Origin: a bacterium
Lineage (GTDB): Bacteria; Patescibacteriota; Patescibacteriia; JBAXGH01
Assembly (NCBI GenBank): GCA_037139515.1
Contig: JBAXGH010000001.1
Coordinates: 16,101 to 80,100 of the forward strand
Direction: 5' to 3'
Length of the DNA stretch: 64,000 nucleotides
The translations under genes and the position numbers were made by a program. The notes beneath the pieces were generated by a model. That model made no database searches, was not told where the DNA came from, and was given only the letters and a program-made list of their open reading frames with translations. Position 1 is the stretch's first letter. Each line of letters begins with the position of its first letter. Shown here in pieces: positions 4,110-59,072 of this stretch.

Positions 4110-4129
4110 CGCCTTTCTCTCGCAAGCAA

Positions 4130-4165
4130 AAACCCCATCGTTGATTATAACGATGGGGTTTTGTA
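4130..4165. terminator. rho-independent terminator after the photolyase-like gene
   Basis: Perfect hairpin AACCCCATCGTT-gattataa-AACGATGGGGTT followed by TTTG. Confidence 0.6.
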
Positions 4166-4210: not shown

Positions 4211-4303
4211 GAAGTCGTACGAGCGACATTGGGCGTGTGTGAGCCGGCCAATCAGCCGTATCTTTGGCCGCCACACACACGCCCAAATCAGCGCTCGTGT
4301 AAG
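4211..4303. repeat. family-1 ~80-90 nt imperfect palindromic element, copy A (variant arms, conserved loop AATCAGCCGTATCTTT)
   Basis: The arms TTGGGCGTGTGTGAGCCGGCCAA and TTGGCCGCCACACACACGCCCAA flank a loop that is also found in copies at 5810, 37031 and 44624. Confidence 0.6.
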
Positions 4304-4312
4304 CCCGAAAAG

Positions 4313-5740
4313 TTATTTAGCCGTCTTCATCCATTCAACGAGATGCCGAGTCGCCAAGACATCATCCTCATTATAATCGACGATTTTTTGCAATATCTTT
4401 TTATCTTTTTTCTCCAACCAATCATGATACCAGGCAATCGAATTCGCGCCTGACGCGTCCGAAGAGCGCCACTTGAAACCGAGAAATTTAGCAATATCTT
4501 TGAGAGAATAAAAATATACCGGAAACAAAACCGAACGCGAAACAATCGGCAGCACATCAATCATGATTTCGCGATTACCAAGCACGCGCGCCGCAGTTTT
4601 CGTGATCCCGTATTTTTCCGTGAGCTCTTTTATCACGATAATTTCATACCAACCATAGTGATAAATCGCCAGGTTTTTGTAGCGCCCGATGAAAGCCTGA
4701 AATTCTTTCCAAGCTTTTTCTTCGCCGCTCGGTTTCTTCGCAAGAAAAGGTTTGAACTCAGACTTTCCGTTGCGTACCACCAAGCATCCAAACAAATAAT
4801 GCACGCTGCGCAAAGGATCAGATTCCATGTCGAAATATATTTCCGTTTTGGCTTTTGGAAAATTATATTTCTCAACAATCACGGCTTTTTTATCGCGCAA
4901 AGCCTCAGCCTGAAGCCTTAATCTTTCCAAACGCGGCTGAGTAATCGAAGGAACTTTAGCTTTCAACTTTCCAAGGTTGGCTCCGGCTAGCTTCTTGAGC
5001 TTTCCATAACCACCTTTCAGCAAAGCCTCTCTTTCGTCGGCACGAATCTTGTAAATCAAAGCAACATCGTCTTCGCCCTCGGCATCCAAAATACACTGTT
5101 TGAAATACGGCGACTGCTTACAGGAACCGTAAAGATGCGGTTCCGGCTTCTCCCCGGAAAGCAATTCTTCTACTTCCTTCAATTTTAAGTGATATTTTTC
5201 TTCGTAATCAGCGACGACCAATTCATGCGTGGCGCCAGTTGCATCAATAATATAAGCACGCTCCGGCATCACTCCCTGAGCTTTTTTCAGCAATTCCGAA
5301 TAGAAACACAGCTGCAACCGATGAACCTCTTCAAAGTGAGACGAGCGTTTGATATCGCACGGAACGTACATCCAATCACCCAAATCTGAAGTTCCATCAA
5401 CTCGTTCCAGCAAATCCGGAATCCCGACATAATTCCCATCCATGAGTACGCCGTGATAAATCAACCCAGCACCGTCTTTCATGTGCTTCAGGGTCATTTT
5501 TGCCTGGTCCTCCAGGTCGCCTTCATGTTTGATTTCAACCATGCTGGCTTTTTTCGATTTGAGGGCCACCATTTCTGCCTCATGCAAAAGGCCATCTTTC
5601 CAAAGCTTCTCCGTCATGGCCGAAACCGGCGCGCGTAGTTTGGCATCAGAAAAAGCTTCATGCCAAGGCCAAGCCGGACACTTCGAATATTGATAAAAAG
5701 ATGTGGCTGTGATGCGTATTTCTTGATTTTTCTTTTTCAT
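4313..5740 (-). CDS. RecB-family (Cas4-like PD-(D/E)xK) nuclease fused to an RNase H-like domain, TM0106-type
   Basis: A cysteine cluster typical of Cas4/RecB nucleases (CPAWPWH near the N-terminus, GSCKQSPYFKQC further on). The C-terminal half has the DMESDP...HYLFG pattern of an RNase H-like fold. Assigned by motif similarity only. Confidence 0.4.
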   Translation of the reverse strand: MKKKNQEIRITATSFYQYSKCPAWPWHEAFSDAKLRAPVSAMTEKLWKDGLLHEAEMVALKSKKASMVEIKHEGDLEDQAKMTLKHMKDGAGLIYHGVLMDGNYVGIPDLLERVDGTSDLGDWMYVPCDIKRSSHFEEVHRLQLCFYSELLKKAQGVMPERAYIIDATGATHELVVADYEEKYHLKLKEVEELLSGEKPEPHLYGSCKQSPYFKQCILDAEGEDDVALIYKIRADEREALLKGGYGKLKKLAGANLGKLKAKVPSITQPRLERLRLQAEALRDKKAVIVEKYNFPKAKTEIYFDMESDPLRSVHYLFGCLVVRNGKSEFKPFLAKKPSGEEKAWKEFQAFIGRYKNLAIYHYGWYEIIVIKELTEKYGITKTAARVLGNREIMIDVLPIVSRSVLFPVYFYSLKDIAKFLGFKWRSSDASGANSIAWYHDWLEKKDKKILQKIVDYNEDDVLATRHLVEWMKTAK

Positions 5741-5809
5741 GGATGTTTTTTCTCACCACCTCACACTTGATAAATTGCCGGAGCCGAAAAAAGTTGGCGT
5801 ATGCCCGAA

Positions 5810-5888
5810 GAAAGTGTACGGAGCCTATTCGTCGTCAGGCAATCAGCCGTACCTTTGCCTGACGAGCGAATAGGTCCGCACTTTCTGT
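5810..5888. repeat. family-1 palindromic element, copy B (GAAAGTGTACGGAGCCTATTCG...loop AATCAGCCGTACCTTTG...CGAATAGGTCCGCACTTTC)
   Basis: Imperfect inverted repeat with about 32-nt arms, read directly. It lies immediately 3' of the minus-strand PPIase gene. Confidence 0.65.
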
Positions 5889-5904
5889 AGTCCCCCGAGA
5901 AATG

Positions 5905-6564
5905 TTATTTAACCGTTACCGAAGTCATCTTATCCCCAACCACAATCTTATCAACCACTTCCATACCTTTGGTTACTTTACCGAAGATAGTATATGACGG
6001 TGGCAGTGGAGTATTCCCAAGCATGATGAAGAATTGCGAGCCGTTGGTATTCGGTCCCGCGTTCGCCATGGCTACAATTCCGCGATCGTAGCTGAGTTTC
6101 ACAGGTTCATCGTTAAAACGATAGCCAGGGCCGCCGGTGCCATTGCCAGAAGGATCACCGCCCTGAATCACAAAGCCTTCTTCGCGACGATGAAATGTCA
6201 GACCATTATAAAATCCGCCTTTTGTTAGATAAAGAAAGTTTGAAGCGGCGAGCGGAGCTTCGGCGCCAAAAACCTCGAATTCGATATTGCCTTTTGCGGT
6301 CTCGATCACGACGGTTTTTTTCAACAAATCCGCATCTGGTAACTTTCCAGGAAATTTCCATTCCATATTCTTTTTAGTTTCAGCGGCTGAGTTATTATCA
6401 GTTTTCGCAGTAATAGGATTATTTTGATCGTAAGCTGCAACCGGAGCCCGCGTATCCAGCAAATCCTGACTCGTACCATATGGCGTTACCGTACCAGTAG
6501 TATTTTGATTTCCACAACCAGCACCTAGGAACAGAAGCGCGAGCGCAAGAACGGTTTTTTTCAT
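5905..6564 (-). CDS. ppiB: peptidyl-prolyl cis-trans isomerase, cyclophilin type, lipoprotein
   Basis: Lipobox LFLGAGCG at the N-terminus. Cyclophilin motifs FHRREEGFVIQGGDP and SQFFIMLG are present. Confidence 0.8.
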   Translation of the reverse strand: MKKTVLALALLFLGAGCGNQNTTGTVTPYGTSQDLLDTRAPVAAYDQNNPITAKTDNNSAAETKKNMEWKFPGKLPDADLLKKTVVIETAKGNIEFEVFGAEAPLAASNFLYLTKGGFYNGLTFHRREEGFVIQGGDPSGNGTGGPGYRFNDEPVKLSYDRGIVAMANAGPNTNGSQFFIMLGNTPLPPSYTIFGKVTKGMEVVDKIVVGDKMTSVTVK

Positions 6565-11254: not shown

Positions 11255-11693
11255 TACCGCATTAGTTTAGTTTTATACGGGAAAGCTTTCAGCTTTGGAT
11301 GAGATGCCTCGCGCTGGAGGGCAAAAAAACCGCAGAAGTATTGAACATACTTTGAGGATTTTTTCGCCTGAAGCGCGAGACAGCTCGCCAAAGATGAGAG
11401 CTTTAGCGTCAAAATTAAATTAATGCGGTACTAAGGGAGGCGCCCAAGCGCCGGGTTCCGGTATGATTTTTCTAAAATATTCTTACACTACGTACCATGC
11501 TCAATGCCGATATATTTTGAATCATCTAAATTGTGATTTTGAAGCTCGCATTAAAAATGAGTTTTCATACACATTAGATTCCAAACATGTCAGCAATGAA
11601 ATGAGGAATACCGAAGAATAATCGTGATTTGCGCGCTCCTCCTCCGCAAATCTACATGCACGACTGGAGCCCGACGCTTGCTCGTAAATATAT

Positions 11694-17400: not shown

Positions 17401-17423
17401 ATATGACACCGAATCCGAACTAC

Positions 17424-18623
17424 TCAGCCAAGGTACGAGGTGAACTCGCGAACCGAATTACGCACGTTCAGCATCCACTTTCGCGAACCACCAAGGTCGG
17501 CTCCGTCATAGCGGTCCTGAACAGCCTGGATGCAGCTACGGGCCTCCTCCCGAAGGGCGCTAGAGACACTTCCCTGCGCCCTCCACATGGCCCGCAGAGT
17601 CCGCTTGCGCAGCTCCCGAACCGCCTGCTTGAATCCGTCTCCAATGAGAGGCGAAGACTGCAAGTAGCCGTTCTCGATGTTCGTCTTCTGCACGGATTCG
17701 ATGTGCTCCGAAGCCCGCGCCCGATCACGCAGTTCCGACGTGAGCATCCGAATTTCCATCCGTCCGTGATTTCCGGGACTCACGAAGTCTCGGGCAAGCA
17801 CCGTCTGAAGATGCTCGCTGATGCGCACATACGGACGCGCCGTAATGCCCTGAAGCAGCGTCGTTGCCCTCGCGGCACCTTCCATGAACCTCTCAACTTC
17901 CGATCCCGAAAGCGCGTTTCGACTTGCCGCCCGCAGAAACCAGTACTCGCCGAATCTGCGCACGGCGTCAAAGACCCCGTGATACTCGTCGACCAGCGCC
18001 CGCATCGCGAGCACGTCGGTATCGATGAATTGGTAGATCCGACCAACTTCGCGCAGACGATTCCAGAGTTCCGAATTCGCCGAAACCAGCTGTGCCGCCG
18101 ACTTGCCGGGATTCACGCGATTGCGCTTGTCACGCATGTTCGCGCCGTGCACCAACTCCTCGAAAGCATGAACCTTGTGCTCATTCTCAACGTTCACAAG
18201 ATCAGCCGCGACGTGCAGAGCGAGCTTCTGAACACTCGCCTGCACCGTACCCTTCAGCCCGGCATACATATTGATGTACGAAAGTGCTTCGTGAACCGTC
18301 CTGCGATGTGCCAGAAGCTCGGGCGTTTCGTACCACTCAACCGCCCTCTTCCTGTGGCGCATCATTCCGCTCATCGCGTCCCAGACACCCTGGTCATAGA
18401 CGTCGAATCGTCCCTTGACCCAGCGCCCCGACATGTGAAGCACGGTGCCGTGAGGCAGGATGAGAATCGCGCCATCGATGTCGAAGATCTGTCTTCCACG
18501 CGTGATAAGCGTCCTCGGGCTCCCACGAACACGGTCGACCGCCACACTTACTTCACCATACTTCGTCTGAATTCCTGGACCCGCACTCGGCTTTTCGACC
18601 ACGAACGCCTCCGATTGGCGCAA
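17424..18623 (-). CDS. hypothetical protein, GC-rich (~58%) single-gene island
   Basis: The antisense long ORF (17403..18647 +) is Arg/His/Pro-rich junk typical of high-GC antisense, so the minus ORF is taken as real. No family recognised. It is flanked by terminators on both sides. Confidence 0.5.
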   Translation of the reverse strand: MRQSEAFVVEKPSAGPGIQTKYGEVSVAVDRVRGSPRTLITRGRQIFDIDGAILILPHGTVLHMSGRWVKGRFDVYDQGVWDAMSGMMRHRKRAVEWYETPELLAHRRTVHEALSYINMYAGLKGTVQASVQKLALHVAADLVNVENEHKVHAFEELVHGANMRDKRNRVNPGKSAAQLVSANSELWNRLREVGRIYQFIDTDVLAMRALVDEYHGVFDAVRRFGEYWFLRAASRNALSGSEVERFMEGAARATTLLQGITARPYVRISEHLQTVLARDFVSPGNHGRMEIRMLTSELRDRARASEHIESVQKTNIENGYLQSSPLIGDGFKQAVRELRKRTLRAMWRAQGSVSSALREEARSCIQAVQDRYDGADLGGSRKWMLNVRNSVREFTSYLG

Positions 18624-18660
18624 AGCGCCATTAAAGAAAAGGTCTGACCCGACGGCAATA

Positions 18661-23261: not shown

Positions 23262-23365
23262 CGTCATCCCCGAAACTCGAGCACGAGTTATCGGGGACCC
23301 ATGACGAACACTCATACTTGGGTCCCCGATAAAATCTGCTGATTTTTCGGGGATGACGTCTGTAG
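23262..23365. repeat. nested double inverted repeat (outer CGTCATCCCCGAAA/TTTCGGGGATGACG, inner ATCGGGGACCCA/TGGGTCCCCGAT)
   Basis: Read directly. The outer arm shares the GTCATCCCCG core with the family-2 repeats. Confidence 0.5.
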
Positions 23366-25046: not shown

Positions 25047-26078
25047 TTACGATGACCAACAGATAGGAGTAAAACTCGCGATAAGTTTACTCGCATTTCC
25101 GTGTGAGCACAGCCCTAAATACGAAGTTGTTCTTTCTTTAGAAGATTCTTCTAGTAATCTTCGCATCATTCGTTTTTTTGTCGCGGTTCGTAGAATCCGA
25201 TGATCCGAAAAATGCACCCAGCCAAGAAAATCAACCCCCGAAGCCAACGTTTCGATAAACACTTTATCAGGGTGCAGCTGCAACTTTAATCGTCGGCACA
25301 AAAAGTCATCAATCACAGGTAGTAGACATTCAAGATATTGTTTTTCGTGATGCAAAAATACAAAGTCATCCGCATAACGCAGATAATACTTTACCCGTAA
25401 TTCGTGTTTTACAAATTGATCAAATTCATTCATGTACGCATTCGCGAGCAGCTGCGAGGTCAAATTCCCGAGCGGCAGACCAATTCCCCCGTCATTCCCG
25501 CGAAGGCGGGAATCCATTTTAGGGTAACTTGTCACAATAGTCCTAAGGAGATCAAAGATTCGTTCATCAAAAATATAGCGACGTAAAATTCCAAGTAATG
25601 TATTTTGATCAATCGAGGCAAAGAATTTTCGTATATCGCATTTTAAAACCCAACAGGTTCGACGATGATTCAAACTCACTTTCCGCGCAAAATCACGAAA
25701 ACGATTCATGGCCGCGTGCGTTCCCTTCCAATTTCGGCAAGAAAAAGAATCCGCAACAAAGCGCTGGTCGAAAAACGTATACAATTTGCGATATAATGCG
25801 TGATGTAAAACCCGGTCACGAACCGAAGCCTTGTGAATATGACGCCGCTTTGGGTCGTTCACGAAAAAGTCTTGATATATTCCATGACGATATTTAGCTA
25901 CACTTAGTTCCTCATGAAGTGCTAAAATATTGTCTACAAGATGCCGTTCATATTCCAACACATCAGGCTTGCCGTGTTTCCCACAAGAAAATTCGCGCCA
26001 TGCTTCAAATAAATTTTCTAACGAAATAATTTCTTCAAAACTACGTTTAAAGCACCCAATATGGTTACCCCCCCCCAA
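25047..26078 (-). CDS. diversity-generating retroelement (DGR) reverse transcriptase
   Basis: RT motifs including YLRYADDFV (YxDD) and the DGR-specific GLPLGNLTSQ (I/LGxxxSQ in place of the group II QGxxxSP). TR and VR lie 0.4-1.0 kb upstream on the same strand. The start is ambiguous: it is called as TTG inside a G9 run. Confidence 0.85.
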   Translation of the reverse strand: MGGGNHIGCFKRSFEEIISLENLFEAWREFSCGKHGKPDVLEYERHLVDNILALHEELSVAKYRHGIYQDFFVNDPKRRHIHKASVRDRVLHHALYRKLYTFFDQRFVADSFSCRNWKGTHAAMNRFRDFARKVSLNHRRTCWVLKCDIRKFFASIDQNTLLGILRRYIFDERIFDLLRTIVTSYPKMDSRLRGNDGGIGLPLGNLTSQLLANAYMNEFDQFVKHELRVKYYLRYADDFVFLHHEKQYLECLLPVIDDFLCRRLKLQLHPDKVFIETLASGVDFLGWVHFSDHRILRTATKKRMMRRLLEESSKERTTSYLGLCSHGNASKLIASFTPICWSS

Positions 26079-26082
26079 CGGG

Positions 26083-26436
26083 CTGAATGAACTCCCAATC
26101 CTTAAAAAGCTGACCGATGCCTACAAACTCTGGCACACGGCCTTTCGGCATCTGCCGAGACTTTCCCGCTTTACGCTTGGGGCTAAGGTCGACGCGATTT
26201 TTTGTGAAGTAATTGAGCATATTTTAACAGCAGGCTATGCAGCTCGAGAGAACAAGATTCTTTGGCTGCAAAGAGCCAGTATCAAACTCGATTCGTTAAA
26301 ATATTTTTTAAAATTAGCCTGGGAGCTGAAAGCACTTAACACTGGCTGTTTTTCCGAAATCTCACACAAACTGGTCGAAGTCGGAAAAGATTTGGGCGGT
26401 TGGCTGAAAGATCTTAAAAAGCAAACTCCCACATAG
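26083..26436 (+). CDS. avd: Avd-like four-helix-bundle protein (23S rRNA-intervening-sequence protein family), putative DGR accessory variability determinant
   Basis: LPILKKLTDAYKLWHTAFRHLPRLSRFTLGAKVDAI...VGKDLGGWLKDLKK matches the helical pattern of bAvd/PF05635 proteins. It is on the strand opposite to the RT. An ATG at 26061 would come into frame only if the C9 tract were C8. Confidence 0.55.
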   Translation: MNELPILKKLTDAYKLWHTAFRHLPRLSRFTLGAKVDAIFCEVIEHILTAGYAARENKILWLQRASIKLDSLKYFLKLAWELKALNTGCFSEISHKLVEVGKDLGGWLKDLKKQTPT

Positions 26437-26462
26437 GCGAGAGTTTGCAAGCAAGAAGAAAG

Positions 26463-26604
26463 TTGCGCACGGCCAGGAACCGATTGTCGGGATCCCACTG
26501 ATTACCGGGATTATCCCAGTTCAGGTTCAACTTACGCTTACCGGAATTCTCGTTCAAATACGGAACCTTACGATTACCGTCTGAATTCACGAAGTCCGAG
26601 CCGA
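26463..26604 (-). repeat. DGR template repeat (TR), 142 bp
   Basis: Matches 27003..27144 except at 20 positions. At 17 of these the TR has A on the minus (sense) strand. TR codons at variable sites are AAT/AAC/AAG/GAT/TAT. Confidence 0.85.
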
Positions 26605-26998
26605 TGTGTGCGTAATGCCGTCCGCTTCACCGCTTCCCGATTTCTCAAAAAGCTGTATCGCATTTGGTATCTTTGAATACCCTAGCATCACGCACCAAGT
26701 TTCTTCATACCAGGGACAAATCGAGAGCGCACTCACACAAAGCTTGCCTTGCATGATTCCGGCATACCGATAAATCCAGAGTTCGGCCGCCCACAGCCAT
26801 AGCGGTGGGAAACATATCGCCTAGACTCCGGTTAACATTATAACACCCAGTACCCGACTAATAAGAATCAAAGTAGGAGGGCTAAGCACCCGACCTCCAA
26901 AAATCAAAGTAGGAGGGTGTAAAAAAATTCGGATGGCCGAGTGTCCTAGGGCCTAAGAACCGGGAACAGAGTACCCAGGGACCAAGCGTCCAAGTTCC

Positions 26999-27958
26999 TC
27001 ACTTGCGCACGGCCAGGAACCGATTGTCGGGACCCCACTGACTACCGGGAAAGCCCCAACTCAAGCCCAACTCACGCCTACCGGAATTCTCGTTCAAACA
27101 CGGAACCCCACGACCACCGTCAGAATCCACGAAGTCCGAGCCGAGAGCTACGATCCAAGATTTTCTTTGAAGATCTGGTTTAGCCGCACCCAAGGCCAGT
27201 AATTCTTCAAGAGTCGCTGGGCGCAACCCGAGCGCATCCAGGCGATCTTCTATCTGCTTGGTAGTTAAGGTTTCGCCAAAGGCGACGGCGATAACTTCAA
27301 TTTCTGTTTTTTCTTTTTCCTTGCCAAAAATGTTTTTCAGAGCCGTTTTAGCACTTCGTTTCCGAGGAAAGTTCTTTTCATTGATATCGCCGTTTTTCCA
27401 GTCGTACTTCCCGGCCGCGATCATTTGTTCCAAGCTCTGACCATAATCAACTTCAACTTTTTCTTTAATTACTTTTTGATCTGGAAAACGAGTGAAAATA
27501 TTCTCGATATGAAGCTTAAAGATTCCCGGAAAAAGCGGGCCGATATAGGCTTTGATGTCAGGTCTGATTTCTTTCTCGCTTGTCGCGATTTGATCCAGGC
27601 GACAATCTAAAACAATCAGCGCGTCTTCTTTTAGATTGCGAGTTTCACGAATCTTGGCCACTCGCGGGTCGTTACCGCGACCAAAACCTTGAATCGGCGC
27701 TTCGATTTCATACAAGAAGATAAGCTCGTCTTTTGTGAGCAGTTCTTTTCTATTTATCTTTCGTTCGATGGCTGTGACTCGCTTCATGTCTGCGGACTGT
27801 TTCGCGTATTTTTCACCGTTCGGATATTCCTTTAGTTTTTTTCGCGAGCACATCGGCGATATAAGCATCAGTATTCTGGTTCGTACCGATGCCTCGGACT
27901 TCATTAAGATTGCCTTCGACAACATGAAGAGCGGCGCGCGGAATTTTCGGAGTTCCAT
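26999..27958 (-). CDS. DGR target (variable) protein, C-terminal portion carrying the VR
   Basis: The ORF ends 4 nt after the VR. Its N-terminal region overlaps the upstream ORF by 146 nt in another frame. Confidence 0.6.
   Translation of the reverse strand: MELRKFRAPLFMLSKAILMKSEASVRTRILMLISPMCSRKKLKEYPNGEKYAKQSADMKRVTAIERKINRKELLTKDELIFLYEIEAPIQGFGRGNDPRVAKIRETRNLKEDALIVLDCRLDQIATSEKEIRPDIKAYIGPLFPGIFKLHIENIFTRFPDQKVIKEKVEVDYGQSLEQMIAAGKYDWKNGDINEKNFPRKRSAKTALKNIFGKEKEKTEIEVIAVAFGETLTTKQIEDRLDALGLRPATLEELLALGAAKPDLQRKSWIVALGSDFVDSDGGRGVPCLNENSGRRELGLSWGFPGSQWGPDNRFLAVRK
27003..27144 (-). repeat. DGR variable repeat (VR) forming the C-terminus of the target gene
   Basis: VR encodes ...GSDFVDSDGGRGVPCLNENSGRRELGLSWGFPGSQWGPDNRFLAVRK followed by a stop. 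The TR equivalent encodes N/K/Y/D at the variable codons. Confidence 0.85.
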
Positions 27959-30331: not shown

Positions 30332-30354
30332 AAGTCGTCAACTAACATACATAA

Positions 30355-30450
30355 CAACACGAATCGGCGCGACGGTGTTCCCTGCGCCCTCCTCCGCGCG
30401 TGTAACGCTGCGGTGAATGCTCGGAAACACCAATCGTCGCCGATTCGTCT
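30355..30450. repeat. family-4 structured repeat (core CTGCGCCCTCCTCCGCGCGTGTAACGCTGCGGTGAATGCTCG within a ~95-nt inverted repeat)
   Basis: Near-identical 42-nt core at 56376..56419 and a partial copy at 11636. Outer arms GAATCGGCGCGACGGTGTTCC and GGAAACACCAATCGTCGCCGATTC. Confidence 0.6.
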
Positions 30451-35869: not shown

Positions 35870-35893
35870 TTGTCATCCCGAAGCCGAGGGATC
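35870..35893. repeat. family-2(ii) 24-nt hairpin repeat TTGTCATCCCGAAGCCGAGGGATC
   Basis: Identical or near-identical copies at 42505, 62575 (reverse complement) and 39918 (reverse complement, inside queA). Confidence 0.7.
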
Positions 35894-36955: not shown

Positions 36956-37030
36956 ATTATACCATTTTCAAAAACAAAAACCGCGGCAGATACCGTGGTT
37001 TTTGTTTTTGTTCGTGTGAGGTTCGGGTAT

Positions 37031-37110
37031 GCGATATTTTGGCCGAAGTGTGCGACGAGCAATCAGCCGTACCTTTGCTCGTCGCAGCACTCGGCAAAAT
37101 ATTGTCGTAT
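37031..37110. repeat. family-1 palindromic element, copy C (loop AATCAGCCGTACCTTTG)
   Basis: Arms GATATTTTGGCCGAAGTGTGCGACGAGC and GCTCGTCGCAGCACTCGGCAAAATATTGTC. It lies between the tsf stop and the gap start. An overlapping + ORF (37029..37583) is spurious. Confidence 0.65.
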
Positions 37111-37118
37111 CCACCGAG

Positions 37119-37712: not shown

Positions 37713-37804
37713 AATGTCGTGTAGCGTGTAACGCGTAACGTGTAACGACAACGTTGAAAGAGTTGACGATGCACGATACAGGTTACACGATACAAGTTTT
37801 AATT

Positions 37805-38700: not shown

Positions 38701-38861
38701 CTATCTACCCCCAACACATCCGCCAACCGCCGCTTTTATCATCTGAACATCTGCGACACCGAAGTATCGAGGGCGATATTCATCAAAAAGCGTGAGAAAT
38801 AAAATGCCTTTTTCAAGGTGGTAGCGAGTGTACATTAAGCCGATAAACCACGCAAATCCAC

Positions 38862-38946
38862 AAATCTACCTGTCCCCTGGTGACAGTCACCTGGGGACAG
38901 GTAGATCTGGCACAGAACGTTGACACAATCACTAAAACGTGATAGA
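38862..38946 (+). promoter_or_regulatory. perfect 14-bp-arm palindrome (ATCTACCTGTCCCC..GGGGACAGGTAGAT) abutting a TTGACA-17-TAGAAAT promoter of the M23 peptidase gene
   Basis: Read directly. The SD AAAGGAGG lies 5 nt before the TTG start at 38977. Confidence 0.55.
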
Positions 38947-39694: not shown

Positions 39695-40747
39695 TTACCG
39701 TATAAACATCGCGTCGCCAAAGCTGAAAAAACGATATTTGAGTTCAATCGCTTCTTCGTAAGCGCGCATGATATTTTCGCGACCGGCGAGCGCGGAAACG
39801 AGCGCCAATAATGTCGACTTTGGCAAATGAAAATTCGTAATCAAACCGTCGATTATTTTAAATTCAAAACCCGGCGTGATGAAAATATTCACATCACCGG
39901 AGAAAGCTGTGATACAAGATCCCTCGGCTTCGGGATGACAGCACTGGCCGAGATGACAACGCGCGGCAACGCCCTCGAGTGCACGAGTCGTCGTCGTGCC
40001 AACCGCAATTACGCGACGACCTTCACGTTTCGCGAGATTAATCTTTTCTGTAGTTTCTTTTGAAATCTCAACCCACTCTTCATGCATCGGATGATTGGAT
40101 AAATCATCAACTTTGATTGGCTGAAAAGTACCGAGTCCGACGTGAAGCGTGATACTCGCGAACTCAATCCCCTGCTTTTTCAATTCTTCGATTAACCGCG
40201 GCGTAAAATGAAAGGCCGCCGTCGGTGCCGCAACCGAGCCGGTTTCGCGCGCAAAAATCGTTTGATAACCCTCCAGCTTTTCCGGCGCCCGCTCGATATA
40301 TGGCGGAACCGGAATCTCACCGTGCGCGTTCGCAAAATCAATCAGCTCGGAATCTGAAATCGATGGTTTCACAATCGCGGTGCCGTCTTCCGGCAAAGCT
40401 AAAACCGAAAGCGACACATCAAAACCCAAATCGATCACCGAGCCGAGTTTTAACTTCTTTCGCGGCTTCACAAGCGTCACCCAAGAATCGCCATGCGGGC
40501 GCACTAAAAAAATCTCAAGTTTCTTTCCGTCCACAGTACCGTGCAAACGAGCGCGAAAGACCTTGGTATCGTTCACAACAAGCAAGTCTCCAGCGCGCAA
40601 AAACTTGCCGATTTCAGCAAAAATTCGATGCTCAAAAGCCCCGGTTTTCTTATCTAAAACCAGTAAACGTGAAGAATCCGGCGGCTCGAGTCTGGTCTGC
40701 GCGATGCGCTCCGGCGGCAAATTATAGTCAAAATCGCTGGTTTTCAT
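39695..40747 (-). CDS. queA: S-adenosylmethionine:tRNA ribosyltransferase-isomerase
   Basis: MKTSDFDYNLPPERIAQ start plus LVVNDTKV and TNFHLPKSTLLALVSA motifs. A family-2(ii) repeat lies in frame (encoding CHPEAEGS). Confidence 0.9.
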   Translation of the reverse strand: MKTSDFDYNLPPERIAQTRLEPPDSSRLLVLDKKTGAFEHRIFAEIGKFLRAGDLLVVNDTKVFRARLHGTVDGKKLEIFLVRPHGDSWVTLVKPRKKLKLGSVIDLGFDVSLSVLALPEDGTAIVKPSISDSELIDFANAHGEIPVPPYIERAPEKLEGYQTIFARETGSVAAPTAAFHFTPRLIEELKKQGIEFASITLHVGLGTFQPIKVDDLSNHPMHEEWVEISKETTEKINLAKREGRRVIAVGTTTTRALEGVAARCHLGQCCHPEAEGSCITAFSGDVNIFITPGFEFKIIDGLITNFHLPKSTLLALVSALAGRENIMRAYEEAIELKYRFFSFGDAMFIR

Positions 40748-40842: not shown

Positions 40843-40887
40843 ATGAACATGATCCTTCGCTACGCTCAGGATGACAACAAAAACACT

Positions 40888-41166
40888 ATGCAGAAAGAAA
40901 TCCACCCAATCATGAACGCCGGCATCAAAGTTCTCTGCGCCTGTGGCAACACTTTCGCGACCGACTCAACTATCAAAGAAATCCGTACAGAATTGTGTTC
41001 TGCTTGCCACCCTTTCTATACCGGCAAACAGAAGCTCGTCGATACGGCTCGCCGCGTCGAAAAGCTCGCCGGTCGTTTCACCGCCACGAAGTCTGTGGTC
41101 GGCACCCGCGGCAACAAGAAGGAACGCCGTGCGAAGCGCGACGATTCGAAGAAGGATTCAAAATAG
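40888..41166 (+). CDS. rpmE: 50S ribosomal protein L31 with a Lys-rich C-terminal extension
   Basis: MQKEIHP...CACGN...[12 protein letters not shown] zinc-ribbon motifs. Confidence 0.85.
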
Positions 41167-41171
41167 CTACG

Positions 41172-41207
41172 AAAACGCGGCCAGCTTTATCGCTCGCCGC
41201 GTTTTTG
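41172..41207 (+). terminator. rho-independent terminator after rpmE
   Basis: AACGCGGC-cagctttatcgctc-GCCGCGTT followed by TTTTG. Confidence 0.6.
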
Positions 41208-41438
41208 ATTATCCAAAAATCTTTGGGCTTATACGCGAGCGCGGTTTGGGAGTACCTCGCGGCGGATTAGGGGCGAGCAATAATCCGGCGCGAGGTACGT
41301 CCCAAAATCGCTCGCTTCGAGCCGACCATTTTGAAACACAAGCGCCACCTATAAAAACTCCACGCTTTTTCTTGCGGGCGGCACGAGAAAAAACACACAT
41401 TCGTCGGCACTCCGCAACTAAGCTAAAATAAAGAGAAT

Positions 41439-42491: not shown

Positions 42492-42573
42492 GGTATTACC
42501 CCGATTGTCATCCCGAAGCCGAGGGATCTTGACATACTAGATGTTTCGCTGCGCTCAACATGACACAAAGGAC

Positions 42574-44530: not shown

Positions 44531-44623
44531 GTGCCCTACATTATATCAAAACGCGACGAAATAACTCATCGCGTTCCGACTTTTTTATTTTTTTCACGCG
44601 GTGAAAGCTGGCCTGTAAAGTTG

Positions 44624-44702
44624 AGAAAGTGTACGAGGCCCATACTTCGACGAGCTATCAGCCGTACCTTAGCTCGTCGAGAGTATGGGCTCGCACTTTC
44701 TG
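44624..44702. repeat. family-1 palindromic element, copy D
   Basis: GAAAGTGTACGAGGCCCATACTTCGACGAGC-TATCAGCCGTACCTT-AGCTCGTCGAGAGTATGGGCTCGCACTTTC. It lies immediately 3' of rplY. Confidence 0.65.
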
Positions 44703-44705
44703 TAA

Positions 44706-45467
44706 TTATTTCTTAGCAGCCGGTTTCTTCTCTGCGGCCTTTTCCGGAGCCTTGGCGCCCGGCTTAGCGGCTGCACCCGGAGCGGCGGCAGCGCCCGGAG
44801 CGCCTTCCGCAACCTCTTCACCTTCCTTCTTCTCCTTCTTGAGCACTTCAACCTTCGAAGCATCAGCGTCGACGGCGGTATCAAGCTTGGCCATTTCTTC
44901 ATCAGTACGAGGAGGAGCAACGAGCACGACGACTTCTTCTTTCTTGCCGACCGGTTCCATGCCCGGAGGAAGCTTCACGTCCTGAATACGCAAACGATCT
45001 TCGAAAGTCTTAAGACCGGAAATATCGACGTCGATGTGAGAAACGAGAGCTGACGGAAGACACATGACTTCGAGTTCGCCCAAGTTCTTAACGAGCGTAC
45101 CGCTCAAGAACTTAACGGCAGCAGATTCGCCGACAAAGTTGAAAGCGATCTTCACGTGCAACTTCTCGTCCATCGAAACGGCGCGGAAATCGACGTGGAT
45201 GATGTGGTCCGAAAGCGGATCGCGCTGAACTTCCTGAACGAGGGTCTTGATCGGAGCTTTGGCGCCTTCAATCGCGAGGTCAATAAGCGTCGATTCACCG
45301 GCTTCGAGCAACATTTTGTTAAAAATCTTCTCATCAACAGAAACCATGAGCGATGGCTGCTTTTTGCCATAAACGACGGCAGGAATCATGTTTTTGGCGC
45401 GAATAGCAACTGCTCCGACGGTACCGGCATCTGTACGAGGCTGTGCGTTCAAAACGAGAGTTTCCAT
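44706..45467 (-). CDS. rplY: 50S ribosomal protein L25/Ctc with an Ala/Pro/Lys-rich tail
   Basis: RTDAGTVGA...MIPAVVYGK...HVDFRAV motifs. Confidence 0.85.
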   Translation of the reverse strand: METLVLNAQPRTDAGTVGAVAIRAKNMIPAVVYGKKQPSLMVSVDEKIFNKMLLEAGESTLIDLAIEGAKAPIKTLVQEVQRDPLSDHIIHVDFRAVSMDEKLHVKIAFNFVGESAAVKFLSGTLVKNLGELEVMCLPSALVSHIDVDISGLKTFEDRLRIQDVKLPPGMEPVGKKEEVVVLVAPPRTDEEMAKLDTAVDADASKVEVLKKEKKEGEEVAEGAPGAAAAPGAAAKPGAKAPEKAAEKKPAAKK

Positions 45468-45484
45468 ATGTTATGAGACAAGGG

Positions 45485-45572
45485 CGTAGGCCATAGGCCG
45501 TAGGCCGTAGTTATGTCATTTTAAGACATCCTACGCCCTATGGCCTACGCCCTACGGCCTAATATTTATTGC
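45485..45572. repeat. ~90-nt palindrome built from inverted arrays of the octamer GGCC(A/G)TAG around a central ATGTCATTTTAAGACAT
   Basis: AGGGCGTAGGCCATAGGCCGTAGGCCGTAG ... CTACGCCCTATGGCCTACGCCCTACGGCCT, read directly. It lies upstream of rplY. Confidence 0.6.
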
Positions 45573-46786: not shown

Positions 46787-51153
<4,367 letters not shown>

Positions 51154-51187: not shown

Positions 51188-51190
51188 TTG

Positions 51191-51270
51191 CCGTCATTCC
51201 CGAAATTTGAGCACAAATTGTCGGGAATCCATTTTCTTCAAATAGACTCCCGCCTTCGCGGGAATGACGG
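51191..51270. repeat. family-2(i) repeats: variant copy with a 20-nt palindromic insert, plus an inverted canonical copy GTCATTCCCGCGAAGGCGGGAGTC
   Basis: Other copies at 25491..25518 (inside the RT CDS) and 52842..52874. Confidence 0.65.
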
Positions 51271-51827: not shown

Positions 51828-51839
51828 ATAGCGAAAAAT

Positions 51840-51910
51840 AGAGATTAGAGCTTAGGGTTTAGAGATTAGTGACATCCCTAACCTCTAAGCTCTAACCTCT
51901 AAGTTCTACC
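51840..51910. repeat. palindromic array of CTCTAAG/CTCTAAC-like heptamers upstream of secE
   Basis: GAGATTAGAGCTTAGGGTTTAGAGATTAG-tgacatc-CCTAACCTCTAAGCTCTAACCTCTAAG. Confidence 0.55.
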
Positions 51911-52699: not shown

Positions 52700-52830
52700 A
52701 CAAAATAAAACACGGGTCCTGGGTCGGTATGTGTTGCGCGTTCGAGACGGGACTGTCCCCAAAGCCGCAGGGGACTGTCCCTCCGAACGCGTAACACGGG
52801 GCCCCTCCCACCCGTGCTTTATTTTATACA
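52700..52830. repeat. ~130-nt imperfect palindrome (outer AAAATAAAACACGGGT/ACCCGTGCTTTATTTT, inner GGGACTGTCCCC x2)
   Basis: Read directly in the nusG-rplK spacer. Confidence 0.5.
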
Positions 52831-53663: not shown

Positions 53664-53671
53664 GTTCAAGA

Positions 53672-53760
53672 AATCAAAAAATCAAGAAAACGAGAAATCA
53701 AGGAACGCTGCCCGCGCCCTTGATTTTTTGATTTCTTGATTTTTTACCAATACCGGGCGG
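53672..53760. terminator. 19-nt perfect inverted repeat of AATCAAGA units enclosing a GC hairpin; candidate terminator after rplK (no rplA follows)
   Basis: AAGAAATCAAAAAATCAAG ... CAAGGaacgctgcccgcgCCCTTG ... CTTGATTTTTTGATTTCTT. Confidence 0.45.
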
Positions 53761-56282: not shown

Positions 56283-56349
56283 ATTTTACCACATTCCCAT
56301 TTCTTCTTCCTCTACAAAACAAAAATCAAAATCACTCAGGTACGGAAAT

Positions 56350-56450
56350 ACGCGAACGGCGGTGCGCGATTCTCTCTGCGCCCTCCTCCGCGGCGTGTGA
56401 CGCCTGCGGTGAATGCTCGCGAGAATACGCGCAATCCGTTCGCCTACTTT
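56350..56450. repeat. family-4 structured repeat, second copy
   Basis: Core CTGCGCCCTCCTCCGCGGCGTGTGACGCCTGCGGTGAATGCTCG. Outer arms CGCGAACGGCGGTGCGCGATTCTC and GCGAGAATACGCGCAATCCGTTCGC. Confidence 0.6.
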
Positions 56451-56482
56451 TCGGGCTCAAACTGTTGCGTTCGAAATGTTTT

Positions 56483-56559
56483 GAAAGTGTACGAAGCCTA
56501 TTCGTCGCTGGGCTATGGCTCCCCTCTAGCCCAGCGAGCGAATAGGTTCGCACTTTCTG
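56483..56559. repeat. family-1 palindromic element, copy E (arms conserved, loop differs)
   Basis: GAAAGTGTACGAAGCCTATTCGTCGCTGGGCTA-tggctcccctc-TAGCCCAGCGAGCGAATAGGTTCGCACTTTC. It lies immediately 3' of pheT. Confidence 0.65.
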
Positions 56560-56582
56560 TTGCTGAGCGAGAAAAAAGAAAG

Positions 56583-58997: not shown

Positions 58998-59072
58998 CGC
59001 AGAGCAAGAGCTTAGGGCTTAAAGCTTAGTGATATCTCTAAGCTCTAATCTCTAAACTCTAAGCTCTAATCC
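58998..59072. repeat. palindromic array of CTCTAAG-like heptamers
   Basis: AGAGCTTAGGGCTTAAAGCTTAG-tgatat-CTCTAAGCTCTAATCTCTAAACTCTAAGCTCTAATCCC. Confidence 0.55.

Follow-up and report, generated by a model that had tools for sequence, protein, structure and literature searches.

A family of long, loop-conserved palindromic repeats beside gene ends in a Patescibacteria genome

Patescibacteria genomes are small and streamlined, but the one considered here still devotes a noticeable share of its intergenic DNA to several families of long hairpins. One of these families was met in a 64,000-nt stretch of contig JBAXGH010000001.1 (positions 16,101 to 80,100; GenBank assembly GCA_037139515.1), referred to below as the window, and it raises a simple question: what kind of element is an imperfect palindrome of 80-95 nt that recurs beside the ends of genes? 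The copies examined here, six in the window and thirteen on other contigs, are best seen as a new, unusually long, loop-conserved form of the repetitive extragenic palindrome (REP)/bacterial interspersed mosaic element (BIME) kind of element. With moderate confidence, we regard them as lineage-specific, non-autonomous palindromic repeats, analogues of REP/BIME (REPIN-like) elements, whose folded strand would be recognized by a trans-acting protein and whose presence is tolerated at gene ends. Below, the anatomy and distribution of the family are described, and this interpretation is weighed against others in which the elements act in RNA or as recombination sites.

Copies, stem designs and covariation

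All five hairpins of the original prediction (copies A to E, Table 1) are present where it placed them. As it had described, each stands 3' of a minus-strand gene, at 3-23 nt from the stop codon; by family scan, these genes encode a TM0106-type RecB-like nuclease (A), a peptidyl-prolyl isomerase (PPIase; B) and the products of tsf (C), rplY (D) and pheT (E). The loop said to be common to four copies was recovered as the 14-mer ATCAGCCGTAYCTT, which is found exactly four times in the window, every time on the plus strand, against a chance expectation of ~0.54 matches even with two mismatches tolerated. Similarly, the outer stem GAAAGTGTACGR...YCGCACTTTCTG is common to copies B, D and E, while the arms of A and C differ. 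The strand bearing ATCAGCCGTAYCTT defines the canonical strand by which orientation is given throughout. A sliding fold of the window, together with covariance models R1 and R2, identified a sixth copy (F) that had not been listed before; it has the stem design of copy A and a loop related to that of copy E, and it is inverted, with its canonical strand on the minus strand. With its filters off, model R1 returns these six loci and no others from the window, all else scoring as generic hairpin. Two independent assemblies of this strain agree exactly in the elements, so an assembly artefact can be dismissed.

Seven other contigs of this organism carry thirteen further copies. The organism is an uncultured bacterium represented by a metagenome-assembled genome, and its PheT, Tsf and DnaE have their closest named relatives (45-60% identity) in Patescibacteria (Parcubacteria, Uhrbacteria). 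In the metagenome scan, true hairpins came from a single sample, Ga0194060, and included eight with the loop and five, with other loops, that were added by the models. The possibility that the Ga0194060 contigs represent a second organism was dropped: the DnaE that they encode matches, at 100% identity, a protein from a 53-kb contig in ENA assembly ERZ27300037, which also contains the contig of the window, and a 21-nt repeat unit (described below) is shared exactly between the window and these contigs. Since both observations link the contigs to the organism of the window, all 19 known copies come from one genome or population, and they amount to six per 64 kb in the window and to 19 in total in the DNA of this genome that was examined. 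Scans with the loop and its closing pairs returned nine matches among species-representative genomes and three among viral contigs, none of them a hairpin. BLAST of the elements against plasmid and phage collections gave no matches. Rfam models had no match anywhere in the window at gathering scores, and at E<=1 just two weak Phe_leader matches appeared elsewhere in the window, none on the elements.

Each unit is a hairpin with ~30 base pairs, and two stem designs can be distinguished: type 2 (copies B, D, E and seven others) and type 1 (copies A, F and six others). The type-2 stem has an A-rich/T-rich outer part. Its 5' arm carries a TA bulge followed by a single-base (G) bulge, its 3' arm has a G bulge following the 11th pair counted from the loop, and A-T pairs close the loop of 12-13 nt. 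The type-1 stem rises from a base of GCGAGCG/CGCTCGC through an asymmetric internal loop (AYT opposite ACCG) and a variable middle stem to an upper part that keeps a C.C mismatch at the eighth position and an apical stem of CCGGSCAA/TTGSCCG. These bulges and mismatches are strand-asymmetric and occupy fixed arms in every copy of their type. The loops fall into three classes, namely loop 1 (ATCAGCCGTAYCTT), loop 2 (AT[GT]GCTC[CG]CC[CT]CT) and loop 3 ([AG]TGCGCCCC[TC]AAT), and each stem type is found with more than one of them. That two stem designs pair freely with three loop classes bears out the modular conservation of loop and stem that had been proposed from the window copies. Copy C, a derivative of type 2, has an apical stem (CGACGAGC/GCTCGTCG) that is also found in copy D.

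A short tag accompanies the hairpin. In most type-1 and composite copies, GTAG, GTTG or GTCG precedes it, and in type 1 this tag is followed by a mini-hairpin (GCTCG-ANG-CGAGC) that is of REP size and that competes with the base of the long hairpin. What the units keep is the 12-13 nt loop, the bulges or mismatches on fixed arms and a short, degenerate GTAG/GTAA/GTAT-like tag, while the middle of the stem is free to vary if it remains paired.

When folded as RNA, copies A to E each form one long imperfect hairpin of -47 to -52 kcal/mol (z of -6 to -9) on either strand; as DNA, both strands fold as well, with z-scores of -7 to -9. Across the aligned copies, 99% of type-2 cells and 96% of type-1 cells form standard pairs, and pairs changed on both sides number 15 of 30 in type 2 and 17 of 30 in type 1. 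For neither type did any of 500 shuffles equal the real alignment in pairing or in covariation score, and pairing falls to 26-49% when the partner columns are slid out of register. It should be noted that this covariation reflects diversity among paralogous copies in one genome and not conservation across species. The compensatory changes and the positional bias (see below) on which the family had been staked are both present, and it survives this check.

The pairs that replace one another are nearly all Watson-Crick. Type 1 has 227 Watson-Crick cells with no G.T and no A.C, and type 2 has 199 Watson-Crick cells, nine G.T (which go back to about six events, most of them in two decaying copies) and one A.C. 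In the pooled set (426 Watson-Crick, nine G.T, one A.C), it is the strand antisense to the mRNA that carries the G.T pairs. Such near-strict Watson-Crick stems suit a constraint at the level of DNA or on both strands. Moreover, the loops are much more conserved than the stems, indicating that the loop sequence is under constraint and that the stems need only pair. The variable stems were also considered as guides, and this was dropped; they match no other place in the genome DNA examined beyond two chance 12-mers inside coding regions.

Mosaics, relatives and likeness to known elements

Several observations indicate that the family behaves as a repeat. Four copies share one ~175-nt composite structure and sit at unrelated loci, including sites after ligA and after der. 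The composite consists, in order, of a type-1 5' arm with part of its loop, an extended type-2 hairpin and a type-1 3' base, and its presence at unrelated loci indicates that the nested element was itself multiplied. A segment of 7-9 nt within the type-1 5' arm differs among the four composites; as the partner arm is deleted in all of them, compensatory evolution cannot explain these differences. In addition, a small repeat unit of 21 nt (ATCCCTCGGCTTCGGGATGAC), itself a small hairpin, clusters beside type-1 elements on other contigs, as is seen in BIMEs, and occurs four times in the window where none is expected by chance; one of these occurrences lies within the reading frame of queA.

Between dnaE and the next gene, the organism of the window carries ~1.26 kb more than the relative at locus L069. 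This extra segment (on contig k141_44147 of the same genome, here locus L067) holds one hypothetical gene of 249 aa lying between two type-1 copies in inverted orientation, whose tagged ends face outward, and it could be a mobile cassette. The encoded protein has no Pfam match and no obvious HUH motif.

No family member was found at tsf, rplY, rpmE-prfA, pheT or dnaE in syntenic relatives with Tsf identities of 87%, 82%, 71% and 69%. The corresponding sites carry a different long hairpin, a classical terminator only or no spacer; because the relatives have other hairpins or none, a base-by-base alignment to an empty site could not be made. In the closest relative found (87% Tsf identity, locus L062), tsf is immediately followed by a different long hairpin with a flank (CTCGG..TACG) similar to the one at copy C; this contig breaks off within the palindrome. 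The site 3' of tsf may be a hotspot that is occupied in turn by different hairpin families.

REPs usually lie <20 bp from the upstream stop codon (PMC3733652), mostly between same-direction and convergent genes, and they form subfamilies with complementary stem changes, alternative loops and GTAG tags (PMC3733652, PMC8266576). The present elements resemble REPs, BIMEs and REPINs in these general properties: they are high-copy extragenic imperfect palindromes near the 3' end of the upstream open reading frame (ORF), mostly between same-direction or convergent genes, with subfamilies that differ by complementary stem changes, alternative loops, conserved stem mismatches and bulges, a degenerate GTAG-like tag and mosaics with other small repeat units. 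Conserved mismatches in REPs are needed by the RAYT transposase to recognize one folded strand, and stem irregularities are recognition determinants for TnpA-REP and single-stranded DNA (ssDNA) transposases (PMC8266576). Among the three readings offered by the original prediction (3' structured RNA, RNase target, REP- or miniature inverted-repeat transposable element (MITE)-like element), the last fits best, given the many copies, the subfamilies, the multiplied composites, the absence from orthologous sites, the GTAG-like tags and the stem irregularities. A MITE in the strict sense was rejected, as the arms differ between copies with compensation and no consistent flanking direct repeat or target duplication was found. 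The family is therefore filed as working like a REP/BIME-type element but not as a member of the defined REP families. A full-text search of the literature gave no relevant paper naming both Patescibacteria and REPs.

Other ~100-nt palindromic repeats offer a second comparison. Correia/NEMIS elements of Neisseria and ERIC/IRU elements of enterobacteria are transcribed, MITE-like repeats whose transcripts RNase III or RNase E processes, and they conserve their whole sequence, including inverted terminal repeats, and carry target duplications. The elements described here share with them their approximate length, co-transcription with neighbours and long RNA hairpins, but differ in that the loop is the conserved part, changes in the arms are compensated and target duplication is not seen. 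Ends of IS200/IS605 elements were rejected as candidates, with no tnpA or tnpB beside any copy, as were TIGR arrays, since the elements are dispersed single units and not tandem arrays.

If the family works in this manner, a trans-acting protein would recognize one folded strand, with the loop, the irregularities and the tag as its cues. The model for such recognition is RAYT/TnpA-REP acting on REPs and the integrase IntI acting on attC, which IntI recognizes as a folded hairpin strand. Recognition would make it possible for elements to be copied to new sites, to nest inside one another and, on occasion, to mobilize a gene bracketed by two inverted copies, and the resulting copies would persist beside gene ends, antisense to the neighbouring gene, through tolerance or targeting. 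Where copies are co-transcribed, the 30-bp RNA hairpin may serve as an RNase III substrate and/or as a barrier to 3' exonucleases; cleavage is plausible in that the genome encodes RNase III. If the elements are mobile, REP-like biology would extend to a new phylum and a new architecture (long stem, identity-carrying loop, nested composites), and the elements would offer a way to track down the mobilizing enzyme.

A number of observations weigh against this interpretation. Classic REPs have stems of 6-13 bp and loops of mostly 2-4 nt (PMC3733652), whereas the stems here have ~30 bp and the loop has 12-13 nt and is the most conserved part. Further, the middle of the stem is hypervariable, and the units are single hairpins and not inverted REP doublets; a REPIN keeps its arms and varies in its spacer, which is the reverse of the pattern here. 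The units of 80-95 nt fall outside the REP size definition (20-40 nt with a 6-13 bp stem), and only the type-1 mini-hairpin with its tag (GTAG-GCTCG-ANG-CGAGC) has REP dimensions. The tag is degenerate and often 3' of the hairpin: in the window, type-2 copies have TGTAG, TGTAA or TGTTG after the hairpin and not before it. REPs of the GTAG superfamily go together with a RAYT gene, which typically has REPs on its flanks; Pfam and NCBIfam scans of ~40 ORFs of the window revealed no RAYT, Y1/HUH or other transposase, and none was seen in the loci examined. Neither a pair of empty and filled sites nor a target duplication could be defined, and mobility is thus inferred, as are the recognizing protein and any effect on RNA, whereas the anatomy, copy number, covariation, orientation bias, mosaicism and absence from relatives are shown directly. 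Lastly, a function for the host might account instead for the strong bias of the elements in orientation relative to genes.

Position relative to genes and alternative explanations

The canonical strand is antisense to the neighbouring gene in 13 of the 17 placeable copies. These are window copies A to F, the copies after ligA, dnaE, rnc, hisS, der and rplU, and one near a solute-binding protein gene; twelve lie 0-60 nt from the stop codon of the neighbour, and the thirteenth (that near the solute-binding protein gene) is ~200 nt from the nearest stop codon. The other four copies are in sense orientation and end 10-25 nt upstream of a sequence that resembles a -35/-10 promoter of the next gene; two of these copies lie between divergent genes. 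Since copy F is inverted beside the plus-strand rpmE, orientation tracks local gene direction and not replication strand; GC skew shows no sign change across the window. Genes directly before an element end in AAA-TAA or AAA-TAG in seven of eight cases, compared with 17 of 54 genes of the window overall. This may reflect a preference of the elements for a TTATTT target, or the stop codon may come from the element itself.

The position of the elements relative to classical terminators varies (Table 1), so that they are often but not always within the 3' untranslated region (UTR). Copies A and C lie between a stop codon and a classical terminator, while F lies beyond the terminator of rpmE, and B, D and E have no separate classical terminator. 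A scan for consensus promoters and terminators returned no more matches than expected by chance and failed to pick up obvious terminators.

This distribution could mean that the elements are 3'-UTR RNAs that function for the host, an explanation that we consider rather improbable, though it has more in its favour than those that follow. The purine-rich loop on the mRNA-sense strand (AAGGUACGGCUGAU or AGAGGGGAGCC) would bind a protein or the ribosome, and the stem would be cut by RNase III or would block 3' exonucleases, thereby setting mRNA stability. Copies A to E are so close after stop codons, with A and C before classical terminators, that they are certainly in mRNA; the antisense orientation of most placeable copies, the strong covariation and the conserved loops are consistent with such a role, as is the presence of RNase III, with one copy following rnc itself. 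Accounting for copy F, beyond the rpmE terminator, and for the four copies upstream of promoter-like sequences, two of them between divergent genes, is more difficult. To regard every copy as a 3'-UTR RNA goes too far. Moreover, type-1 stems lack G.U pairs and the G.T pairs of type 2, being on the antisense strand, would become A.C mismatches in the transcript; the elements are not kept at the same genes in relatives, and the neighbouring genes are functionally unrelated. Were the elements to act in RNA, they would provide a general signal of 3' ends to an organism in which few regulators are known.

It is also conceivable, but unlikely, that the hairpins are terminators or insulators, that is, one duplicated variety of the normal 3'-end signal of the lineage, possibly factor-dependent. 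They share with intrinsic terminators a G+C-rich hairpin after genes; most window genes with a 3' spacer of >90 nt are followed by a hairpin of 75-120 nt, in a relative dnaE is followed by a heptamer palindrome (see below) with TTTTT and then a promoter, and copies B, D and E have no classical terminator downstream. The view that the elements lack T-tracts and are not classical terminators holds for the window copies, none of which has a T-run after the stem, and separate classical terminators follow A and C and precede F. It does not hold in full for sister copies on other contigs, where type-2 outer stems of A6-7/T6-7 resemble terminators in both directions. In addition, the window copies are three to five times the length of a typical terminator hairpin, and intrinsic termination needs neither a conserved 12-nt loop nor fixed bulges.

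A more speculative explanation, which we hold to be about as doubtful as a terminator role, is that the elements are sites of an undescribed folded-single-strand system of the candidate phyla radiation. Such a system might comprise a hairpin-specific mobilizing enzyme that discriminates by loop class and fixed bulges and can move whole genes lying between two inverted hairpins (a hybrid of REPtron and attC cassette) or, alternatively, a loop-binding marker of gene ends, and the hypervariable yet fully paired middle stem might result from arm-to-arm conversion in an extruded hairpin and not from ordinary compensatory evolution.

That the canonical strand is expressed as small antisense RNA genes or anti-Shine-Dalgarno mimics, with C-rich loops (CUCCCCUCU, GCGCCCCUAA) like the UCCC-loop small RNAs of Firmicutes, appears very unlikely. 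The wobbles favour the canonical strand (nine G.T cells, or ~6 events, versus one A.C), loops 2 and 3 and a neighbouring hairpin family are C-rich on that strand, and four copies share the direction of the downstream gene; however, the wobbles are few and most of them belong to two decaying copies, C-richness does not extend to loop 1, there is no consistent upstream promoter or downstream terminator, and ~1 copy per 10 kb would be an implausibly large number of small RNA genes.

Least credible of all are attC-like or other site-specific recombination sites read as folded ssDNA by a tyrosine recombinase, which the elements recall in conserving structure with extrahelical bases on one arm over sequence, in following ORFs directly in fixed orientation, in the strand-specific recognition that this implies and in the one gene bracketed by two copies, but from which they differ in having no R or L boxes (no RYYYAAC/GTTRRRY in the alignments), no integrase or attI in the window or loci examined and no cassette array, the copies being dispersed after housekeeping genes.

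Other hairpins and features of the window

Long hairpins follow most window genes with a sizeable 3' spacer, and they belong to several unrelated families; the relative Ga0170573 carries different hairpin families of its own. The family described here is one part of a genome-wide long-hairpin habit in the lineage. A second family, whose apical domain (CTGCGCCCTCCTCCGCG..GCGGTGAATGCTCG) is conserved and whose long outer stems vary, has one copy 14 nt after the stop codon of the enolase gene and another that directly adjoins copy E; its pairing with a type-2/loop-2 element recurs on another contig in the same relative order. Palindromes built of tandem heptamers (GTAACGN, GTAGGCC, TTAGAGN, AATCAAG, CTAGRGC) stand directly after stop codons. 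As the one at locus L069 precedes TTTTT and then a promoter, heptamer palindromes may be the usual terminators of the lineage. Further long intergenic hairpins (about -43 to -72 kcal/mol as RNA) follow a phosphoglycerate mutase gene, gyrB, nusG and a small ORF, and two of them share the motif GTCATYCCCGAAA.

Table 1. Coordinates of the elements, their neighbours and other features (window positions unless a locus handle is given)
Feature	Position	Strand	Remarks
Copy A	4211..4305	+	Type-1 stem, basal CGAGCG/CGCTCG, internal loop, C.C mismatch; loop 1 (ATCAGCCGTATCTT); R2 86.6 bits
RecB-like nuclease gene	4313..5740	-	Stop codon 9 nt from A
Copy B	5808..5894	+	Type-2 stem (GAAAGTG, TA bulge, CGGA, G bulge ... 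3'-arm G bulge); loop 1; R1 102 bits; RecB-like gene start 69 nt downstream
PPIase gene	5905..6564	-	Stop codon 16 nt from B
Copy C	37029..37114	+	Shortened type-2 derivative in a different A/T-rich outer stem; loop 1; 45 bits; 8 nt from tsf stop codon
Copy D	44623..44709	+	Type-2 stem; loop 1; 103.7 bits
rplY	44706..45467	-	Stop codon 3 nt from D
Copy E	56481..56566	+	Type-2 stem; loop 2 (ATGGCTCCCCTCT); 85 bits; 23 nt from pheT stop codon
Copy F	41228..41323	-	Type-1 stem; loop 2b (ATTGCTCGCCCCT); R2 82 bits; prfA 115 nt further on
rpmE	40849..41166	+	Upstream of F
Classical bidirectional terminator	4128..4164	.	AAAACCCCATCGTT..AACGATGGGGTTTT; serves convergent photolyase-like and RecB-like genes; A between it and RecB-like stop codon
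Classical terminator (A-tract/hairpin/T-tract)	36969..37010	-	After C in the tsf transcript
Classical terminator of rpmE	41172..41206	+	AAAACGCGGC..GCCGCGTTTTT; between rpmE stop codon and F
Composite copy	L031 5148-5322		
Composite copy	L019 5582-5760		
Composite copy	L056 3158-3335		
Composite copy	L056 2078-2240		
Repeat unit ATCCCTCGGCTTCGGGATGAC	35872-35892, 39919-39939, 42507-42527, 62576-62596		
Extra segment after dnaE	L067 13506-14762		
Bracketed 249-aa gene	L067 13791-14531		
Different hairpin after tsf of relative	L062 1076-1184		
Second hairpin family	30354-30448		
Second hairpin family	56345-56451		Adjoins E
Second hairpin family	L056 ~4955-5045		
Tandem-heptamer palindromes	37720-37794, 45481-45561, 51839-51901, 53666-53745, 59007-59067		
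Tandem-heptamer palindrome	L069 3775-3862		
Further long intergenic hairpins	23262-23358, 51190-51270, 52711-52820, 11291-11400, 38861-38909		
Diversity-generating retroelement	25047-27958		
Reverse transcriptase	25047..26078	-	
Avd-like ORF	25930..26436	+	
Template repeat	26463-26604		142 nt
Variable repeat	27003-27144		86% identical to template; 3' end of target gene
Target gene	26999..27958	-	
ORF	17403-18647	+	~400 aa
ORF	17424-18623	-	~400 aa
GyrB gene	47695-51153		1152-aa ORF with intein

Two ORFs of the window overlap almost fully on opposite strands, and neither has a significant Pfam or NCBIfam match. The window also contains a diversity-generating retroelement, and a link between it and the hairpin family was considered and rejected, with no family member near the variable repeat and stem variation that is not adenine-specific. 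The GyrB gene is interrupted by an intein, with the splicing domain at residues 489-911. Palindromes of the sort described here break assemblies and mislead ORF callers, and several spurious ORFs of the window run through the elements.

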